From NCBI GenBank assembly GCA_963716985.1, contig OY970323.1, positions 1,888,001 to 1,952,000 of the forward strand: a stretch of DNA of 64,000 nt, in the 5' to 3' direction. Both the position numbers and the translations under genes were made by a program. Within the stretch, counting starts at the first letter, position 1, and each line of letters starts with the position of its first letter. Origin of the DNA: an uncultured bacterium. GTDB lineage: Bacteria > Chlamydiota > Chlamydiia > Chlamydiales > SM23-39. Positions 3,252 through 31,570 of the stretch are shown here, piece by piece. The notes beneath the pieces were generated by a model. The model saw only the letters and a program-made list of their open reading frames with translations, had not been told where the DNA came from and made no database searches.

Positions 3252-3611
3252 TTAGACGGCTGCTTTTTTTTGGGGATAAACATAATTGGCAATCAAACGC
3301 GGAAGAAACACAACACTTGCGAGCAAGGGTACTCCCACACTTAGGGGAATTGTTATGTAAAGGTTCAAAACTGACATTACTGCTAATGCCACCATGTCTA
3401 TCGTGTAGATCAAAAAGTTTTTTTGCATTTCTTGCAGACGCTCCGCTTGAATGTTGCAAGTTTTCCCGAGCGCATAAGCTAAACTGCCATGAAAAATCGC
3501 CCATCCCCCAACAACAATGACAGCCAATTTAACCATATCCCAGCGAGCATCGTATGCAATGAGCGTAGAGGAATGAGAACTTTTTCTTATTACATCAAAA
3601 AAACAAGCCAT
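3252..3611 (-). CDS. Small membrane protein (paralog of 5670-6050)
   Basis: Hydrophobic segments; C-terminal half essentially identical to its paralog; GGAG RBS upstream. Confidence 0.7.
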   Translation of the reverse strand: MACFFDVIRKSSHSSTLIAYDARWDMVKLAVIVVGGWAIFHGSLAYALGKTCNIQAERLQEMQKNFLIYTIDMVALAVMSVLNLYITIPLSVGVPLLASVVFLPRLIANYVYPQKKAAV

Positions 3612-5669: not shown

Positions 5670-6050
5670 CTAATTAGATGGTTGCTTTTTTCCGGGATAA
5701 ACATAATTGGCAATCAAACGCGGAAGAAACACAACACTTGCGAGCAAGGGCACTCCCACACTTAGGGGAATTGTTATGTAAAGGTTCAAAACTGACATTA
5801 CTGCTAATGCCACCATGTCTATCGTGTAGATCAAAAAGTTTTTCTCAACCTCATTCTTATTCTCAATATTCACGTTTTGCAACTCTTGTAGAACATTGTA
5901 GTTTTTCTTGGCTACACATATGAAACTACCAATAAGAATGGCCGCAGCCCCAATACCCATGAAACCCCACTTAATCATATCCCGGTGAGCATCGTATGCA
6001 ACGGGCATAGCGTGAAGAGAACCTTTTATAACATCAAAAACATACGACAT
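5670..6050 (-). CDS. Small membrane protein (paralog of 3252-3611)
   Basis: MSYVFDVIK... start behind GGAG; hydrophobic segments. Confidence 0.7.
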   Translation of the reverse strand: MSYVFDVIKGSLHAMPVAYDAHRDMIKWGFMGIGAAAILIGSFICVAKKNYNVLQELQNVNIENKNEVEKNFLIYTIDMVALAVMSVLNLYITIPLSVGVPLLASVVFLPRLIANYVYPGKKQPSN

Positions 6051-25040: not shown

Positions 25041-25069
25041 TTGACAGAAAGTTATTCTGAAGTCATTAT
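25041..25069 (+). promoter_or_regulatory. Sigma70/sigma66-like promoter, repeated at about 25923 and 26519
   Basis: TTGACA-17 nt-CATTAT upstream of each 'A' gene copy. Confidence 0.5.
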
Positions 25070-25100
25070 TTTCCCCATAAATTTTAATCGCGAGGTGCAA

Positions 25101-25511
25101 ATGACAGCTACAGAAAGTTCTCCTTCATTGGGTTCAATTTTGAAAATAGCAGGGGTCGGTGGATGTGTCGTAGGAGGAACCCTCATGGGAGGTCCTGTCA
25201 TTGGTGTTGTGGGAGGTGCTGCCGGATTGACTGTTTTGGCAATAAACGCCATTTGTAAGGAAAAAAATGTTAGGAGTGTTGAAGAAAATAGTGCAACAGC
25301 TGTTGGGCTACTGATTAGCTGTACCATCAGTTTGATAAGCACTGTAGTTTTTCAAAATGCATCTTCTTCGGAATGTGGAAAAATGCACCAGAATTCCGAT
25401 AGTAATTTTTTTCAAGCAACATGTTATGGTTCTTCCGCCTTGTATTATGTGAGCATCGCGAGCGTAATTTATTTCATTGGAAGCGCCGCGATCTGGAAAT
25501 TTTTTCGTTAG
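25101..25511 (+). CDS. Small Gly-rich membrane protein, copy A1
   Basis: MTATESSPSLG...; long hydrophobic stretches; GAGGT RBS. Confidence 0.8.
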   Translation: MTATESSPSLGSILKIAGVGGCVVGGTLMGGPVIGVVGGAAGLTVLAINAICKEKNVRSVEENSATAVGLLISCTISLISTVVFQNASSSECGKMHQNSDSNFFQATCYGSSALYYVSIASVIYFIGSAAIWKFFR

Positions 25512-25521
25512 GAGGATAAAA

Positions 25522-25854
25522 ATGAGCACAACAAATAGTGTTCTTTGTTTTTCCCCAATTAAAGAATGGCAAAATTTTAAAGAAAGCTACCAAGCATGGG
25601 GGCAAATACTTCCCAAAAGCATTAAGGAAAACGCTAAAATTCTGTTAATTGCAAATGCTGGTTTTTTGATTATAGCCGCAATTTTTGCATATATAGGCTT
25701 TCCAAACCCCGATGTACGGCTTGCTGTATTGGGTTCTTTTGGTATCATTCTTCTTTGCGACCTGGCATTTTGTTTTATCATGCAAGGTTTTCTCGTTTTA
25801 AGGATCGTTCAAGCATTTTGTCCTTTTTCTTTTTTAACGAAAGCTGATCGATAA
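25522..25854 (+). CDS. Small membrane protein, gene B
   Basis: AGGAGG RBS, two hydrophobic segments; followed by hairpin GCGTAGTGC...GCACTACGC. Confidence 0.75.
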   Translation: MSTTNSVLCFSPIKEWQNFKESYQAWGQILPKSIKENAKILLIANAGFLIIAAIFAYIGFPNPDVRLAVLGSFGIILLCDLAFCFIMQGFLVLRIVQAFCPFSFLTKADR

Positions 25855-25984
25855 GGCGTAGTGCAGTAGCAGAGCACTACGCGTCTCCCTATTACTCTGA
25901 ATTGCGACCAATCTGACCTTCCTTGACAGAAAGCTATTCCGGGTTCATTATTTTTCCCATAAATTTGAACCATGGAGTGTAATA

Positions 25985-26395
25985 ATGACAGCTACAGAAA
26001 GTTCTCCTTCATTAGGATCTATGTTTGGGATAGCCGGGGTCGGTGGATGTGTTGTTGGAGGAACCCTCATGGGAGGCCCTATCGTAGGTTTTTTTGCTGG
26101 TGCTGCCGGATTGACTGTTTTGGCAGTAAACGCCATTTATAAGGAAAAAAATGTTAGGAGTGTTGAAGAAAATAGTGCAACAGCTATTGGGCTACTGATT
26201 AGCTGTACCATCAGTTTGATAAGCACTGTAGTTTTTCAAAAAGCCTCTTCTTCGGAATGTGGAAAAATGCAACAGAATTCCGATAGTAATTTTTTCCAAG
26301 CAACATGTTATGGTTCTTCCGCCTTGTATTATGTGAGCATCGCGAGCGTAATTTATTTCTTTGGAAGCGCTGCGATCTGGAAATTATCTCATTAG
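25985..26395 (+). CDS. Small membrane protein, copy A2
   Basis: Paralog of A1. Confidence 0.8.
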   Translation: MTATESSPSLGSMFGIAGVGGCVVGGTLMGGPIVGFFAGAAGLTVLAVNAIYKEKNVRSVEENSATAIGLLISCTISLISTVVFQKASSSECGKMQQNSDSNFFQATCYGSSALYYVSIASVIYFFGSAAIWKLSH

Positions 26396-26580
26396 AAGGA
26401 TCGTTCAAGCATTTTGTCCTTTTTCTTTTTTAACGAAAGCTGATCGATAAGGCGTAGTGCAGTAGCAGAGCACTACGCGTCTCCCTACTACTCTGAATTG
26501 CGACCAATCTGACCTTCCTTGACAGAAAGCTATTCCGGGTTCATTATTTTTCCCATAAATTTGAACCATGGAGTGTAATA

Positions 26581-26991
26581 ATGACAGCTACAGAAAGTTC
26601 TCCTTCATTAGGATCTATGTTTGGGATAGCCGGGGTCGGTGGATGTGTTGTTGGAGGAACCCTCATGGGAGGCCCTATCGTAGGTTTTTTTGCTGGTGCT
26701 GCCGGATTGACTGTTTTGGCAGTAAACGCCATTTATAAGGAAAAAAATGTTAGGAGTGTTGAAGAAAATAGTGCAACAGCTATTGGGCTACTGATTAGCT
26801 GTACCATCAGTTTGATAAGCACTGTAGTTTTTCAAAAAGCCTCTTCTTCGGAATGTGGAAAAATGCAACAGAATTCCGATAGTAATTTTTTCCAAGCAAC
26901 ATGTTATGGTTCTTCCGCCTTGTATTATGTGAGCATCGCGAGCGTAATTTATTTCTTTGGAAGCGCTGCGATCTGGAAATTATCTCATTAG
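26581..26991 (+). CDS. Small membrane protein, copy A3
   Basis: Identical protein to A2. Confidence 0.8.
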   Translation: MTATESSPSLGSMFGIAGVGGCVVGGTLMGGPIVGFFAGAAGLTVLAVNAIYKEKNVRSVEENSATAIGLLISCTISLISTVVFQKASSSECGKMQQNSDSNFFQATCYGSSALYYVSIASVIYFFGSAAIWKLSH

Positions 26992-27082: not shown

Positions 27083-27490
27083 GTCGGGTAGCCCAAGGGA
27101 ACTTCCCCCTTAGGCTCCCACGGATCCGTACGTGAAACTCTCGTTTCATACGGCTCTTATTATTCAGCAAGGAGGTTTCACCATTTTCCAATGCCCATAT
27201 AGCTGAGGATTGTTTTTCGCAACTTTCCCCAACAGATTCATGGCTCTTCCAAAGTGTCCTCTCATCTTTTTATACTTCCTTTTTACCCATCTCGTTAATT
27301 CCTCATTTACGTGATAAAGGACTGGTCTCATTTCAGATCTGAAAAATCTGCCATAGTAATTGATCCACCCTCGTACTATAGGATTGATTTCTCTGGCCAG
27401 TTCTTCCAACGTTTTCCGAGTGGCCAGATGCAATCTCCACTTCCTGATAGTCTCGTACATCTTCTTCTTTGCCTTATTGCTCACAGCTGA
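27083..27490 (-). mobile_element. 3' remnant of an RT-encoding group II intron (maturase C-terminus, DV, DVI)
   Basis: DV GAGCCGTATGAAACGAGAGTTTCACGTACGGATC (27123-27156), DVI ending CTACCCGAC; maturase peptide LAREINPIVRGWINYYGRF. Confidence 0.92.
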
Positions 27491-27632: not shown

Positions 27633-28706
27633 TTAGCTTTTTGAAGATGCGCCGTCGGGATAAATCCATGCGGAAATGATCGGAGGAAGCAATCCTATTG
27701 AACCTAAAGTTACGGCCCATCCCAGCTCTTTTGGAAAGGACACAAAAAAAGATAGAATAGCTGTCTGGATAGATTCTGGGCGCAGTTTAACTGGTTCCCA
27801 GAGCCCCCGTTTTCATCCCGGACGGTCGGATTTCCCGAATCCGGTTGGCGTTCTTGACTTTTCATAAAGGCGCCTTCCATTTCTTAGTGGGTTAGATAAC
27901 GTTAGCGCTTATCATCCCTACTAATATTGTTTGCACCCCTACTTCGATATGCTATTTGCTGACACCTTCCTGAGGCTCTGAGTCCCCTTGTTGCCAACAA
28001 TCTCATATCCATCAAGTACCGAGAGTTCCTTCGCCCGCACCATCAGGTATTAATCTGCATGCGGAATGATCTTTTTTTTTCATCATTTGAAAAGTCGTTA
28101 CACTTTCCTCATCGCTACTACGAACTCATGCGCCGATCCATCCTCCTCTTCTTGTCTTCGCTTGTACACTATTACAAGAGGTCTTTGCAGCTTATCGCTA
28201 ATTCTTGCCGGAAGATGGACCTTCCCGACTTTATCCTATAATTCTTTCATTAGGTGCTTGATCCCATATCCCGGTGGTATCTACATTGCTTTTGATCGTT
28301 TCTTCACGTAAATCATTGCCCTTCCCTGACGTACTAATAGGTCGGATTAACCACAACAACCCCTCCAACAACTTCTGGAAGGAAGACTCTTTCGGAACTG
28401 CAGATATTCTCTTATGTTCAGGCCCCTAATTTTGCTTGCCGTTCTGGTTGTTCCTACCAATGATTCTCAAGTGTCCTCATTAGCAGCCACGGCGTTTACA
28501 TCCAGGCTATACAAGCGTTGTTACCACCGCTTGTCTCGGATATGCTACTCATCCAAACCGATCAATTGATGAGGAGAGAACTTTCATCTCTCTAGAATTA
28601 TAATATTATCGGCCGCTACCAGTACGCAAAGAGCTACAAAAGCGATCTTTAGATTCAACGAGGCTCTTTTTTCGACAATTGTTATTCTTCCCTCAAAAGC
28701 TTTCAT
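27633..28706 (-). CDS. Putative 68-aa membrane protein split by the ORF-less intron (exons 28706-28630 and 27762-27633)
   Basis: Spliced: MKAFEGRITIVEKRASLNLKIAFVAL|AILSFFVSFPKELGWAVTLGSIGLLPPIISAWIYPDGASSKS*; the hydrophobic helix is continuous across the junction. Confidence 0.5.
27763..28629 (-). ncRNA. ORF-less group II intron (867 nt)
   Basis: 5' TTGCG, DI-like elements (GAGATGAAAGTTCTC, CCACCGGG), DIII GAGTTCGTAGTAGCGATGA...GCGAAGGAACTC, short DIV without ORF, DV CAACCGGATTCGGGAAATCCGACCGTCCGGGATG, 3' CTATCCAGAC. Confidence 0.82.
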
Positions 28707-28737
28707 CCCGTGAGAAGAAGTATAAATCACGCATCCC

Positions 28738-28768
28738 AAAAAAACCCAACCACCAACAGCGATTAGGG
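28738..28768 (-). terminator. Downstream part of the tRNA-Lys rho-independent terminator, split by IS607
   Basis: Reconstructed empty site AAACCCTAATCGC-TGTTG-GTGGTTGGGTTTTTTT forms a hairpin plus U-tract. Confidence 0.65.
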
Positions 28769-28840
28769 CTTGTAGCAGCTTGATAAAATATGCGTAAATT
28801 TGAGAAAATTTATGCAAATTTGCATAGGTATTAAGAAAAA

Positions 28841-29452
28841 ATGAAAATAAGTATTGGCAAGGCGGCTTCCCTCCTTGGAGTTTCAAAGGATACCCTTCGA
28901 AGATGGGAAAGAGAGGGCAAGATCCATTCCAAAAGAACCGTCAAAGGTCACAGACGATATGATGACGGTGAACTCACCGGCCTGAAGCGAAGGGGCAGTC
29001 CGGACAACAAAATCACGCTCGGATATGCCAGAGTCTCTTCCTATGATCAAAAAGAGGATCTCCAAAGACAAGTAGCGCTTCTTGAATCCTACTGTGCTGC
29101 CAATGGCTGGTCTTGTGAAATTCTCCAAGATCTCGGATCGGGTCTCAACTATCAAAAAAAAGGTTTGAAGCTTTTGATCAAAAGAATATGCTCTTCTGAT
29201 ATTCAAAGGCTGGTGTTGACCCACAAAGATCGCCTCCTTAGATTTGGATCGGAGCTGATCTTTTCACTCTGTGAGCAATTTGGCGTGGAGGTAGTGATCA
29301 TCAATGCTTCGGAAAACACCTCTTTTGAAGATGACCTTGTCCAAGATGTTTTGGAGATCATAACGGTATTCTCGGCAAGACTCTACGGATCAAGATCAAA
29401 AAAGAATAAAAAACTTATAGAGTCTCTGAAAAATGCAGCAGAAAGATTGTAA
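28841..29452 (+). CDS. tnpA: IS607 transposase (MerR-like HTH + serine recombinase)
   Basis: AASLLGVSKDTLRRWE, GYARVSS..QKEDL.RQ, DRLLRFG, VFSARLYG. Confidence 0.95.
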   Translation: MKISIGKAASLLGVSKDTLRRWEREGKIHSKRTVKGHRRYDDGELTGLKRRGSPDNKITLGYARVSSYDQKEDLQRQVALLESYCAANGWSCEILQDLGSGLNYQKKGLKLLIKRICSSDIQRLVLTHKDRLLRFGSELIFSLCEQFGVEVVIINASENTSFEDDLVQDVLEIITVFSARLYGSRSKKNKKLIESLKNAAERL

Positions 29453-30959
29453 AAAAACCTTCACCTACCAAACAAGGCTCCCGATTCTTACCGAAAAAGA
29501 GGATCTTTTTCTATCTCAAACAGCAACTCTTCTCTCAAAAGTGGAAAGAACTCTTTTTGCAGATTTTTCCAAGGCCAAAAAACTCAACGATCTCAAATCC
29601 ATCTATCTTGAAAAATTTTCCATCACGGCAAGACAGTTCAATTCTTGCCGGATCTCTCTGGAAGGAAAAATCCGATCTTACCAAGAGGGACTGAAAGAAA
29701 GAATCTCTCTTTTGAAAACAAAAATCCAAAAACTGGAAAAGCATGTAAAAAGCTGCAAAGATCCCTCTAAAAAGCATCAAAAAAAGCGCAGGCTTTTCAT
29801 CTTGAAAACCACTCAAAAAAATCTGGAAAAAGATCAAGAAGAGGGAAAGGTCCGTATCTGTTTCGGGGGGAAGAATCTTTTTCATCAACAATTCCATCTC
29901 GAAGAAAATGGTTTTACTCAATTTTCCGAGTGGAAAAAGACCTGGCAAGAAAAAAGAAACAATCAGTTTTTCCTCATAGGATCCAAAGATGAAACAGCCG
30001 GCAATCAAAGCTGCCAACTGTCGAAAGAAGGAGGCCTCTTCACTCTCCACCTTCGTCTGCCCAATGGTTTTTCCGAAAAAACCCTTGCGATCAAGGGAAT
30101 CGATTTTTCCTACGGAAAAGAAGAGATCGAACAGGCTCTTGAAGAAAACGAAAAGAGAAGAAATCTCCGATTGGCAAAACAGCCCTATACAGATATTGGA
30201 AGAGCCCTCAACTATCGATTTTTAAAAGACAAAAAAGGCTGGAGGTTCTTCATCAGCCTAGAACAAAGATCTCCCGCAAAAAAAAGCAAAAATGCATTGG
30301 GTACGATCGGGATCGATATCAACGCCAATCATCTGGCCCTAGCAGAAACGGATCGATTCGGAAACATCATTGAAAAAAAGAGCATTCCCTGTTCCACCTA
30401 TGGCAAAAGCACAAACGCTCGTCTTGCCATTATCGGAGATGTCAGCAAAGAGATCGTAGAATATGCCCTTCAAAAAGAAAAACCCCTTGTTCTGGAAGAT
30501 CTGAACTTCCAAAAGAAAAAACAAACCCTGAGAGAATCCAATAACAAATATAGCCGGCTCCTCTCCTCTTTTTCCTACAGCCAAATCCTAAGCCACATAG
30601 AATCTAAAGCTTTTAGAGAGGGAATCGAAATCTACCATGTAAATCCCGCCTATACAACAATCATAGGAGAGGTAAAATTCACAAAAAGATATGGGCTGTC
30701 GAAACATCATGCGGCAGCTTTCGTCATCGCAAGACGAAAAGATGGTTTTTCAGAAAAGCCTCCTCGATATCTAGAAATAGATACAGAAAACTCCAAGTCC
30801 GCTTTTTCCCAACCCGTGTGGAAGACGGAAAAACACGTTTGGTGTTTTTATAGGGCGCTAAGTAAGAAGAAAAAAGCGGCACATGCAGTGCATTTACCGA
30901 CGAAAAGATCCTCAAAACAATTGAGAGACAGCCGGAAGGCTTCGGTAGATTATGGGTGA
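29433..30959 (+). CDS. tnpB: Long TnpB-family RuvC protein without a C-terminal zinc finger
   Basis: RuvC-I GIDIN, RuvC-II VLEDL, NPAYTTIIG, HHAAAFVIARR; overlaps the tnpA stop. Confidence 0.88.
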   Translation: MQQKDCKKTFTYQTRLPILTEKEDLFLSQTATLLSKVERTLFADFSKAKKLNDLKSIYLEKFSITARQFNSCRISLEGKIRSYQEGLKERISLLKTKIQKLEKHVKSCKDPSKKHQKKRRLFILKTTQKNLEKDQEEGKVRICFGGKNLFHQQFHLEENGFTQFSEWKKTWQEKRNNQFFLIGSKDETAGNQSCQLSKEGGLFTLHLRLPNGFSEKTLAIKGIDFSYGKEEIEQALEENEKRRNLRLAKQPYTDIGRALNYRFLKDKKGWRFFISLEQRSPAKKSKNALGTIGIDINANHLALAETDRFGNIIEKKSIPCSTYGKSTNARLAIIGDVSKEIVEYALQKEKPLVLEDLNFQKKKQTLRESNNKYSRLLSSFSYSQILSHIESKAFREGIEIYHVNPAYTTIIGEVKFTKRYGLSKHHAAAFVIARRKDGFSEKPPRYLEIDTENSKSAFSQPVWKTEKHVWCFYRALSKKKKAAHAVHLPTKRSSKQLRDSRKASVDYG

Positions 30960-31058: not shown

Positions 31059-31131
31059 TGAGACTTGAAGGATTTGAACCTTCGACCTACTCCTTAAAAG
31101 GGAGTTGCTCTACCAGCTGAGCTAAAGTCTC
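31059..31131 (-). tRNA. tRNA-Lys(TTT)
   Basis: Revcomp GAGACTTTAGCTCAGCTGGTAGAGC...CT TTT AA...GGTTCAAATCCTTCAAGTCTCA. Confidence 0.93.
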
Positions 31132-31219: not shown

Positions 31220-31570
31220 TCATTCTATCGACAGAGCTGCCCTCATTCCTTTAGAGATGGAAGAGAAGCTCTGCTCCTTTATTGTTAAAGTTTACAAACG
31301 GGGGGTTAATTCCCCCTAGCAGTTACCTGCAATCTCCGGTTTCCCGGGTAAAGTTCCCCTCGCCAAAGTTATGGAACGGTTTTAAATGTTAGCGGCACTG
31401 GTTTAACCCGTACGCCTGTTTAACCACTAACCGCAGAGCTTGGAACTGATGCGGCATCCCAAGGTGCCTATATATTCGCTCCTAACGTAGTCTCAAACGT
31501 AGAGACTTAAGGCTGGCCAACTTCATGCTTGATTACGCAAGCATCTCCCTTCAGGGAGTGGTGATTGGCC
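31220..31570 (-). ncRNA. Stand-alone HEARO/IscB-type omegaRNA element (no iscB ORF)
   Basis: Revcomp GGCCAATCACCACTCCCTGAAGGGAG.TGCTTG...GTTGGCCAGCCTTAAG...CTACGTT...ATAGGCACC..GGATGC...CAGTTCC..GCTCTGCGG...TAAACAG...CAGTG...TAACTTTGGCGAGG...TTTACC, followed by a degenerate end hairpin. Confidence 0.85.

Follow-up and report, generated by a model that had tools for sequence, protein, structure and literature searches.

A chlamydial ORF-less group II intron with an AAC triad in domain V: probable member of a widespread lineage

The window analysed here is a 64,000-nt stretch from the genome of an uncultured member of the Chlamydiales (contig OY970323.1; this genome is designated G000 below). 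On its minus strand, a gene for a small membrane protein is interrupted by a sequence with the appearance of a group II intron. A first-pass annotation, made from the letters alone, described it as a divergent intron that carries no reverse transcriptase (RT) gene and departs from the norm at two places of its catalytic core. Is such an intron a damaged copy of an ordinary one, or does its core belong to a lineage of its own? To answer this question, its ends, fold, relatives, targets and possible helpers have to be considered. All features are listed in Table 1.

Table 1. Features of the intron locus (positions within the window).
Feature	Position	Strand	Remarks
5' exon, small membrane-protein gene	28621..28790	-	upper limit approximate
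Internal ATG	28706	-	in 5' exon
Possible IBS2	28634-28628	-	in 5' exon
Look-alike TTGCG	28629-28625	-	inside 5' exon
IBS1	28627-28621	-	in 5' exon
ORF-less group II intron	27763..28620	-	858 nt, GGTAGC...CCAGAC
Domain I	28225..28616	-	basal stem ~28612-28594 with 28245-28225
Possible EBS2	28386..28392	-	7 bp with exon -8 to -14, by eye
delta	28336	-	partner column 28399, complementary in 55/60
EBS1	28329..28335	-	pairing with IBS1
EBS3	28266	-	complementary to 3' exon base 1 in 56/62, all four pair types
Domain II	28135..28221	-	consensus fold
J2/3 G-C-A	28129..28131	-	middle C where O. iheyensis intron has G288
Domain III	28023..28127	-	consensus fold
Domain IV	27849..28021	-	~173 nt, structured, no ORF
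Domain V	27814..27847	-	34 nt; AAC triad, CC bulge (27825-27824), GAAAU loop
Domain VI	27767..27808	-	bulged A at 27770
3' exon up to host stop codon	27633..27762	-	first base = IBS3
3' fragment of canonical group II intron	27083..27484	-	maturase X domain, AGC-type DV/DVI
Host paralogs	window ~3270-3560 and 5700-6020; G000:285751 and 1706776	- (window copies)	~100-114 aa each
IS607-type element	28841..30959	+	resolvase TnpA and TnpB-like ORF; including the far end, up to 31056

The 867-nt stretch from TTGCG (28629) to CCAGAC (27763), by which the intron had first been delimited, is present on the minus strand, but TTGCG belongs to the exon. The EBS/IBS pairing that had been proposed as a check was found: EBS1 (28335-28329) forms 7/7 pairs with an exon ending at 28621, compared to 2/7 with an exon ending at 28630, as the original boundary would demand, and 0/7 with one ending at 28620. 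Joining the exons at 28620 yields a protein of 71 aa that aligns without gaps to the intron-free paralog at G000:285751-286092 (score 125). A join at 28629 leaves a three-residue gap (score 111), and one at 28619 shifts the frame (score 62). A start at 28619 was rejected due to this frameshift and the 0/7 EBS1 pairs. Because of the complete EBS1 pairing at 28621 and the gap-free alignment, the intron is read as 28620-27763. Judged by these comparisons, its 5' end is 28620, nine bases inward of the position assumed before. Removal of 28629-27763 does give the predicted 68-aa frame; the product of the correct join, however, is the 71-aa protein.

The same boundary is seen in relatives. Members of the family (see below) begin with G(G/T)AGC instead of GUGYG, at times with extra 5' nucleotides; this start also served as a pattern for selecting them. 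The window copy has one extra G ahead of it, a one-base shift was assigned in 11/60 members, and in L055, L096 and L218 the start is, by eye, apparently displaced by 2 or 3 bases. In the closest relatives, from genomes G066 and G096, TGCG is likewise present a short way upstream. There, the family intron is located in the last codon of homologous genes (L021 in G066, L015:1350-1365 in G096). With the family boundary, the two host genes terminate at an identical codon; if the TGCG-type boundary is used instead, their tails are unrelated. By eye, the C-terminal domain of these two host proteins resembles the variable domain of DGR targets. Likewise, in relatives nested in canonical introns, a cut at G(G/T)AGC...AC restores intact host motifs. 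The 3' end at 27763 had been placed correctly: the U of EBS3 (28266) can pair with the A that opens the 3' exon, and this column is complementary in 56/62 relatives. Both an AY end (...AC) and a bulged A in domain VI are present. As the 3' end was located with a pattern containing its letters, EBS3 provides the independent support.

The window copy is inserted in the sense strand of its host gene, which encodes a small hydrophobic protein. Four intron-free paralogs exist in G000 (36-100% to a 114-aa query). Outside this genome, the only relative found was a single near-identical match of 83 aa, and a Pfam search with the host protein and its paralogs returned no family. The paralogs represent a lineage-specific family. 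Since the similarity to them reaches upstream beyond the ATG at 28706, up to about 28790 and the beginning of an IS607-type element, this ATG is probably not the ancestral start. On sequence grounds, the host gene was probably 5'-truncated by this neighbour, which appears to have replaced its 5' end. The IS607 label is based on the gene pair of a resolvase TnpA and a TnpB-like protein. With a host gene that is probably truncated, nothing indicates that the cell needs the splice. The far end of the IS607-type element adjoins a tRNA gene at 31059, and two partial copies of that end are found elsewhere in G000. Beyond it, a HEARO RNA was detected on the minus strand (31348-31569, 131.6 bits), with at least seven related stretches in the genome. 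On the other side of the intron, at 25041-26991 (+), small hydrophobic genes are arranged in tandem; two copies of 136 aa are identical and a third is similar. The neighbouring sequence 27083-27484 (GIIM domain, E 1.6e-19; RF00029, 56.6 bits at 27083-27158) was considered as a part of the ORF-less intron. It is a separate fragment of a canonical intron, repeated almost identically at G000:385087-385487 and 329743-330015.

All six domains that had been recognized by inspection, in part or by name, fold. The consensus fold of 54 non-redundant members (mean identity 62%) comprises domains I to VI in order, with compensatory pairs in helices of all six. Domain IV spans ~173 nt (28021-27849) and contains no ORF, in agreement with the earlier estimate of about 170 nt without an RT gene. 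The triad position AAC (27846-27844) and the DII-DIII linker GGCGCA (28134-28129) were read as claimed. A helix between the intron 5' end and this linker was rejected: it has no compensatory pair and competes with the basal stem of domain I. In the window copy, the middle A of the triad faces a 2-nt loop (27817-27816). The same arrangement is found across the family. From its base, domain V consists of an N-N' pair, an A-U pair, the middle A facing two bases, a C-G pair and five pairs, above which follow a bulge of CC or CU, another four pairs and a loop of five bases. The two bases opposite the middle A are GA in 51, CA in nine and AA in one of 62 members, and one member is disrupted. In 25 chosen members, 99.7% of the cells of the domain V alignment are paired, and the pair below the triad is C-G in 11, G-C in nine and A-U in four of them. 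None of 500 shuffles and no slid control equalled this pairing, a significance that is inflated by the relatedness of the sequences. An upstream CGC was also considered as the triad. Its bases vary across the family, whereas AAC is fixed and stands five pairs below the bulge. J2/3 reads GCA in 47 of 62 members, GAA in six and ACA-type in one; seven were unread, and a lone CGAGGA was taken for a mis-hit.

Canonical group II introns have AGC or CGC as catalytic triad, the G of which is described as invariant in the cited sections (PMC4424553, PMC7583470). In the O. iheyensis intron, the middle triple is formed by G288 on the G359-U pair, and the exchange G359A, the standard inactivating change, nearly abolishes activity and kills metal binding, according to the part of the report used here (PMC3669008). 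In the AAC family, the invariant G and the central G of J2/3 that corresponds to G288 are both missing. With AAC, two opposing bases and GCA or GAA in J2/3, the canonical middle triple is altered on all three strands. The suggestion that triad and linker deviate in concert is borne out insofar as both deviations occur together throughout the family. True covariation cannot be shown because AAC stays fixed while J2/3 is GCA or GAA, and none of the members found has AGC or CGC. Of the 62 members, the window copy diverges most: 37/292 conserved positions differ. Among eight conserved pairs inspected in it, six have altered bases yet still pair, four of them with alterations on both sides. Its domain VI is devoid of a ~75-nt extension carried by most relatives. 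This hairpin was also seen in canonical introns (L319:546-612 and L320:1421-1493), in one case ahead of the RT ORF and in the other within domain VI; it may be an exchangeable module.

How far does this family extend? A scan of a species-genome collection with a domain V pattern yielded at least 119 loci. Among the matches listed (80 with titles), the bacterial ones include Desulfobacterota, Acidobacteriota, Planctomycetota, Gamma- and Alphaproteobacteria, Myxococcota, Chloroflexia, Omnitrophota, Bacteroidales, Proteiniborus and Chlamydiae, and the archaeal ones a Bathyarchaeota and a Sifarchaeum bin; as these are mostly MAGs, binning errors are possible. Because the domain V pattern fixes AAC, metagenomes were scanned with the 5' end alone, which again yielded at least 119 loci. 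Of these, 51 have at least 800 nt downstream, and in 30 of them a domain V is readable at a distance of 711-770 nt, in all 30 cases with AAC. The remaining 21 comprise four full-length copies (three with AAC, one with AAT and an insertion), seven partial ones and ten without a profile match. Among the loci examined, no family member with AGC or CGC was seen. In a BLAST search of 300 genomes of the phylum, to which one unscored genome has to be added, five matched, including that of the window: two carry full ORF-less homologs with 71-73% identity, one has domain V fragments, and one 22-nt match was taken as chance. This means, the intron that had been regarded as a lone divergent one is a member of a large mobile family. 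Since AAC and GCA in J2/3 are fixed traits of this family, they are not the result of decay.

Altogether, 62 distinct full-length members were gathered. They are 836-942 nt long, apart from one mis-ended at 1093 nt, and ORF-less by construction. Independent of this selection, 59 of 123 domain V loci have at least 900 nt upstream, and none contains an RT within the intron; RT matches at 8/59 loci are all outside. The form of a retroelement with an RT/maturase ORF in domain IV (classes A-F, CL, ML) is thus not represented in these 59 loci. A search for further copies, recommended with the original description, found the element to be single-copy in G000: neither a copy search nor the family profile detected a second copy or a parent intron. 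As the family profile has no other match in G000, no parent is present. An RT-bearing sister lineage was sought by BLAST in five carrier genomes and with a profile in 15 intron regions; both returned only short fragments. Four sets of DNA contigs contained neither an exon joint nor a piece spanning the stretch, so that no intron-free allele was seen in them, a result that speaks neither for nor against the intron. Phage and plasmid collections gave no match except a 32-nt one taken as chance, and 0/32 pattern matches in viral contigs had a family domain V or profile match.

Target recognition was studied across the members. With one fixed register, EBS1 and IBS1 form at least 6 bp in 49/60 members, compared to a mean of 2.3 and a maximum of 9 in 2000 shuffles that were given the same choice of shift; as the sequences are related, such shuffle controls overstate the significance. 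The other 11/60 have fewer than 6 bp between EBS1 and the exon. For EBS2-IBS2, excess complementarity was observed between columns 28388-28384 and exon positions -10 to -14, e.g. 35 cases versus 13.4 expected (n=50); this signal is weaker than that of EBS1 and its register uncertain. An EBS3-IBS3 contact combined with an intron-internal delta-delta' pair defines IIB-like introns. Both are found, in 56/62 and 55/60 members, respectively. Target duplications have a length of 0 in 39, 1 in 13, 2 in six and 4 in one of 59 members. Terminal inverted repeats were not found, and the ends of the window intron are not complementary. Some genomes contain several copies: G303 has 17, G304 four and G301 three. 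The 15 full copies of G303 share a median identity of 99.1%, while their differing flanks match EBS1. Copies are also frequently nested in other group II introns, in conserved parts of these. In target pairing, exact ends and spread, the family thus behaves as a mobile group II intron does.

From the comparison of fold, core and targets, the window element is most probably a copy of a widespread, uniformly ORF-less, IIB-like group II lineage with a rebuilt active site. A wider reading, which we judge slightly better than an even bet, is that of a new class: an old, permanently ORF-less lineage in many bacterial phyla and some archaea that splices and retrohomes with a rebuilt triplex and borrows the RTs of unrelated introns. 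In this triplex, A would replace the 'invariant' triad G, matched by the changed partner strand and J2/3. The middle catalytic triple would be substituted by the J2/3 C or A facing the A in a 1x2 loop, and the flanking A-U and C-G pairs together with the 2-nt bulge could hold the metal-binding backbone in position. Splicing would proceed via the domain VI A; the RNA would then insert by reverse splicing and be copied into cDNA by an RT provided in trans, a dependence comparable to that of SINEs on LINEs. Because G359A nearly abolishes activity of the O. iheyensis intron, activity with AAC is deduced only from the signs of mobility. As to the window copy, correct splicing would restore the frame of the probably truncated host gene. 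It may no longer be active because it is single-copy and the most divergent of the 62, and we give it about an even chance of having lost splicing.

RTs that could act in trans are at hand, in line with the dependence on a trans-acting maturase that the first-pass annotation had named as one option: G000 holds RT-bearing introns with 12 RT matches, including five identical copies of 486 aa. The RNA of this five-copy intron matches group-II-D1D4-4, an Rfam model of the 5' part with which family members were matched, too. Therefore, this RT is the first candidate for the helper and a lead to follow.

Another explanation for the AAC triad would be a weak or inactive domain V in the family itself, with the domain V of a canonical intron RNA catalysing in trans, so that the element parasitises both helper RNA and protein. 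In vitro, a domain V is able to work in trans. The loss of metal binding by G359A in the O. iheyensis intron (cited part of PMC3669008) is in line with this, as is the location of 16/62 members, for which nesting inside another group II intron was flagged, in two cases inside their own family; one of these flags is based on the 5' flank alone, and further nested cases were noted by eye (L047/L297, L082). We consider it unlikely since domain V, with its invariant AAC and compensatory pairs, is among the most conserved parts, whereas a dispensable hairpin would lose these features, and free-standing copies, among them those of G303, are in the majority.

Slightly less likely still is a functional ORF-less lineage that manages without any group II RT, whose RNA splices and integrates while host polymerases or other RTs complete the copy. 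This would fit genome G096 (97% complete), where the intron is present without an RT match, and the family, in which neither an RT remnant nor a close RT-bearing relative was seen. However, the G096 assembly is fragmented (180 contigs), and group II RT matches were found in 9/10 hand-picked carrier genomes (six over the cut-off) compared to 3/14 control genomes. Moreover, trans-mobilisation of ORF-less introns is an established route in the systems covered by the cited parts of two reports (PMC8643678, PMC2882425). By analogy to these, the AAC family may behave as a IIB intron without ORF does when its mobility is provided in trans.

That the window copy is an ordinary intron which lost its ORF and acquired AAC and GCA as lesions is very improbable. 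Its single copy, its divergence, the short domain VI and the probably truncated host gene would agree with decay, but the same AAC, loop geometry and ORF-less domain IV recur across many phyla, at over 100 loci, and the family profile revealed no parent intron in G000. This family-wide occurrence refutes decay as the origin of AAC/GCA. Least credible is a transposase-driven, MITE-like DNA element, as the lack of an ORF, several copies in some genomes and the adjacent IS might suggest: it is refuted by EBS/IBS covariation, the internal EBS changing with the target, and there is neither a target duplication nor are the ends inverted repeats.

The expectation that standard annotation would miss this intron proved right. 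RF00029 (Intron_gpII) had no match in the window intron, either at the gathering threshold or at E<=10, and none of its 16 matches at E<=10 in all of G000 is located at the intron site. The Rfam search intended as a confirmation thus returned no model for the window copy. RF00029 matches at the loci of relatives were read as belonging to host introns. RF02003 (group-II-D1D4-4) did not match the window copy either; relatives exceeded the cut-off at 4/12 and 3/20 loci. In the main text of open-access papers, including PMC12350094 and bioRxiv 2024.12.10.627823, no description of the AAC family and no paper linking an AAC triad with a group II intron was found. Hence, the ORF-less AAC lineage is apparently undescribed.

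Its nearest counterparts are possibly the bacterial IIB-like lineages E and F, which as described by Nagy et al. (2013, PMC3753933) share the six domains, the location of EBS1 and EBS3 in domain I and the bulged A of domain VI; their EBS2, also in domain I, may have a counterpart in the AAC family. The 5' part of several relatives, as that of the five-copy RT intron of G000, matches group-II-D1D4-4. In contrast to these lineages, the AAC family has no IEP and comprises 836-942 nt instead of the 450-700 nt given there without ORF (PMC3753933). In addition, it has AAC in a 1x2 loop, GCA or GAA in J2/3, G(G/T)AGC instead of GUGYG and no RF00029 match. Kinship to lineages E/F is a lead, with provisional class labels, and the family profile gave only short weak fragments in RT-bearing introns.

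Introns of Thermosynechococcus elongatus (PMC2882425), Trichodesmium and Methanosarcina (PMC12584367, PMC4424553) are likewise ORF-less and multi-copy with target-specific EBS; they also nest in group II introns and presumably use an RT in trans. As described in the passages cited, they arose locally by deletion, retain remnants of the ORF and share the genome with a closely related, RT-bearing parent. By contrast, the AAC family has no visible parent, a conserved structured domain IV, ~62% mean identity across phyla and a non-standard core. C.te.I1 from Clostridium tetani, in the excerpt consulted, is also ORF-less, located in a protein-coding gene and altered at its 5' splice site, but it is single, domesticated and alternatively splicing, in contrast to the widespread, mobile AAC family with its altered triad. 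The circularly permuted introns (Roth et al., 2021, PMC8637638, in part) are another ~900-nt bacterial group II variant found by RNA comparison. They keep AGC and permute the domain order; in the AAC family, domains I-VI follow in the usual order and it is the triad that differs. HYERs, known here from a citing passage (bioRxiv 2024.08.31.610620), are ORF-less bacterial group II RNAs, too, but small and of type IIC; AAC introns are about twice as long and have a 7-nt EBS1 and an EBS2 signal. By its structure and its exon binding, the AAC family qualifies as group II. Because it deviates in triad, J2/3, GUGYG and RF00029 match and has no IEP, it fits no named class.

Pipelines that rely on RF00029 or on an RT, as PMC8919778 does in its cited part, are expected to miss the AAC family. 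A mobile family with A in the triad would allow testing which parts of the triplex shared with the spliceosome are needed as bases and which as backbone geometry. If the wider reading is true, it would overturn the view of ORF-less introns as rare and short-lived in bacteria and supply a natural variant to probe the active-site model common to U6 snRNA. A programmable EBS without an internal ORF is of practical interest, too. The window copy itself, divergent and in a probably truncated gene, is of little weight.

Some loci display peculiar arrangements. In L054, L198 and L201, a member is inserted either within a second one of its own family or in head-to-tail arrangement with it. In G304, four copies (L297, L300, L303, L305) occupy one site in domain III of a host intron, and the inner intron of L297 begins with TGAGC and ends with GGC instead of GAC. 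Another ORF-less intron of ~660 nt, nested in domain V of an RT intron at L320:1550-2206 (-), has an AGC domain V and a GTTGCG-type start; it possibly represents a sister or stepping-stone lineage.
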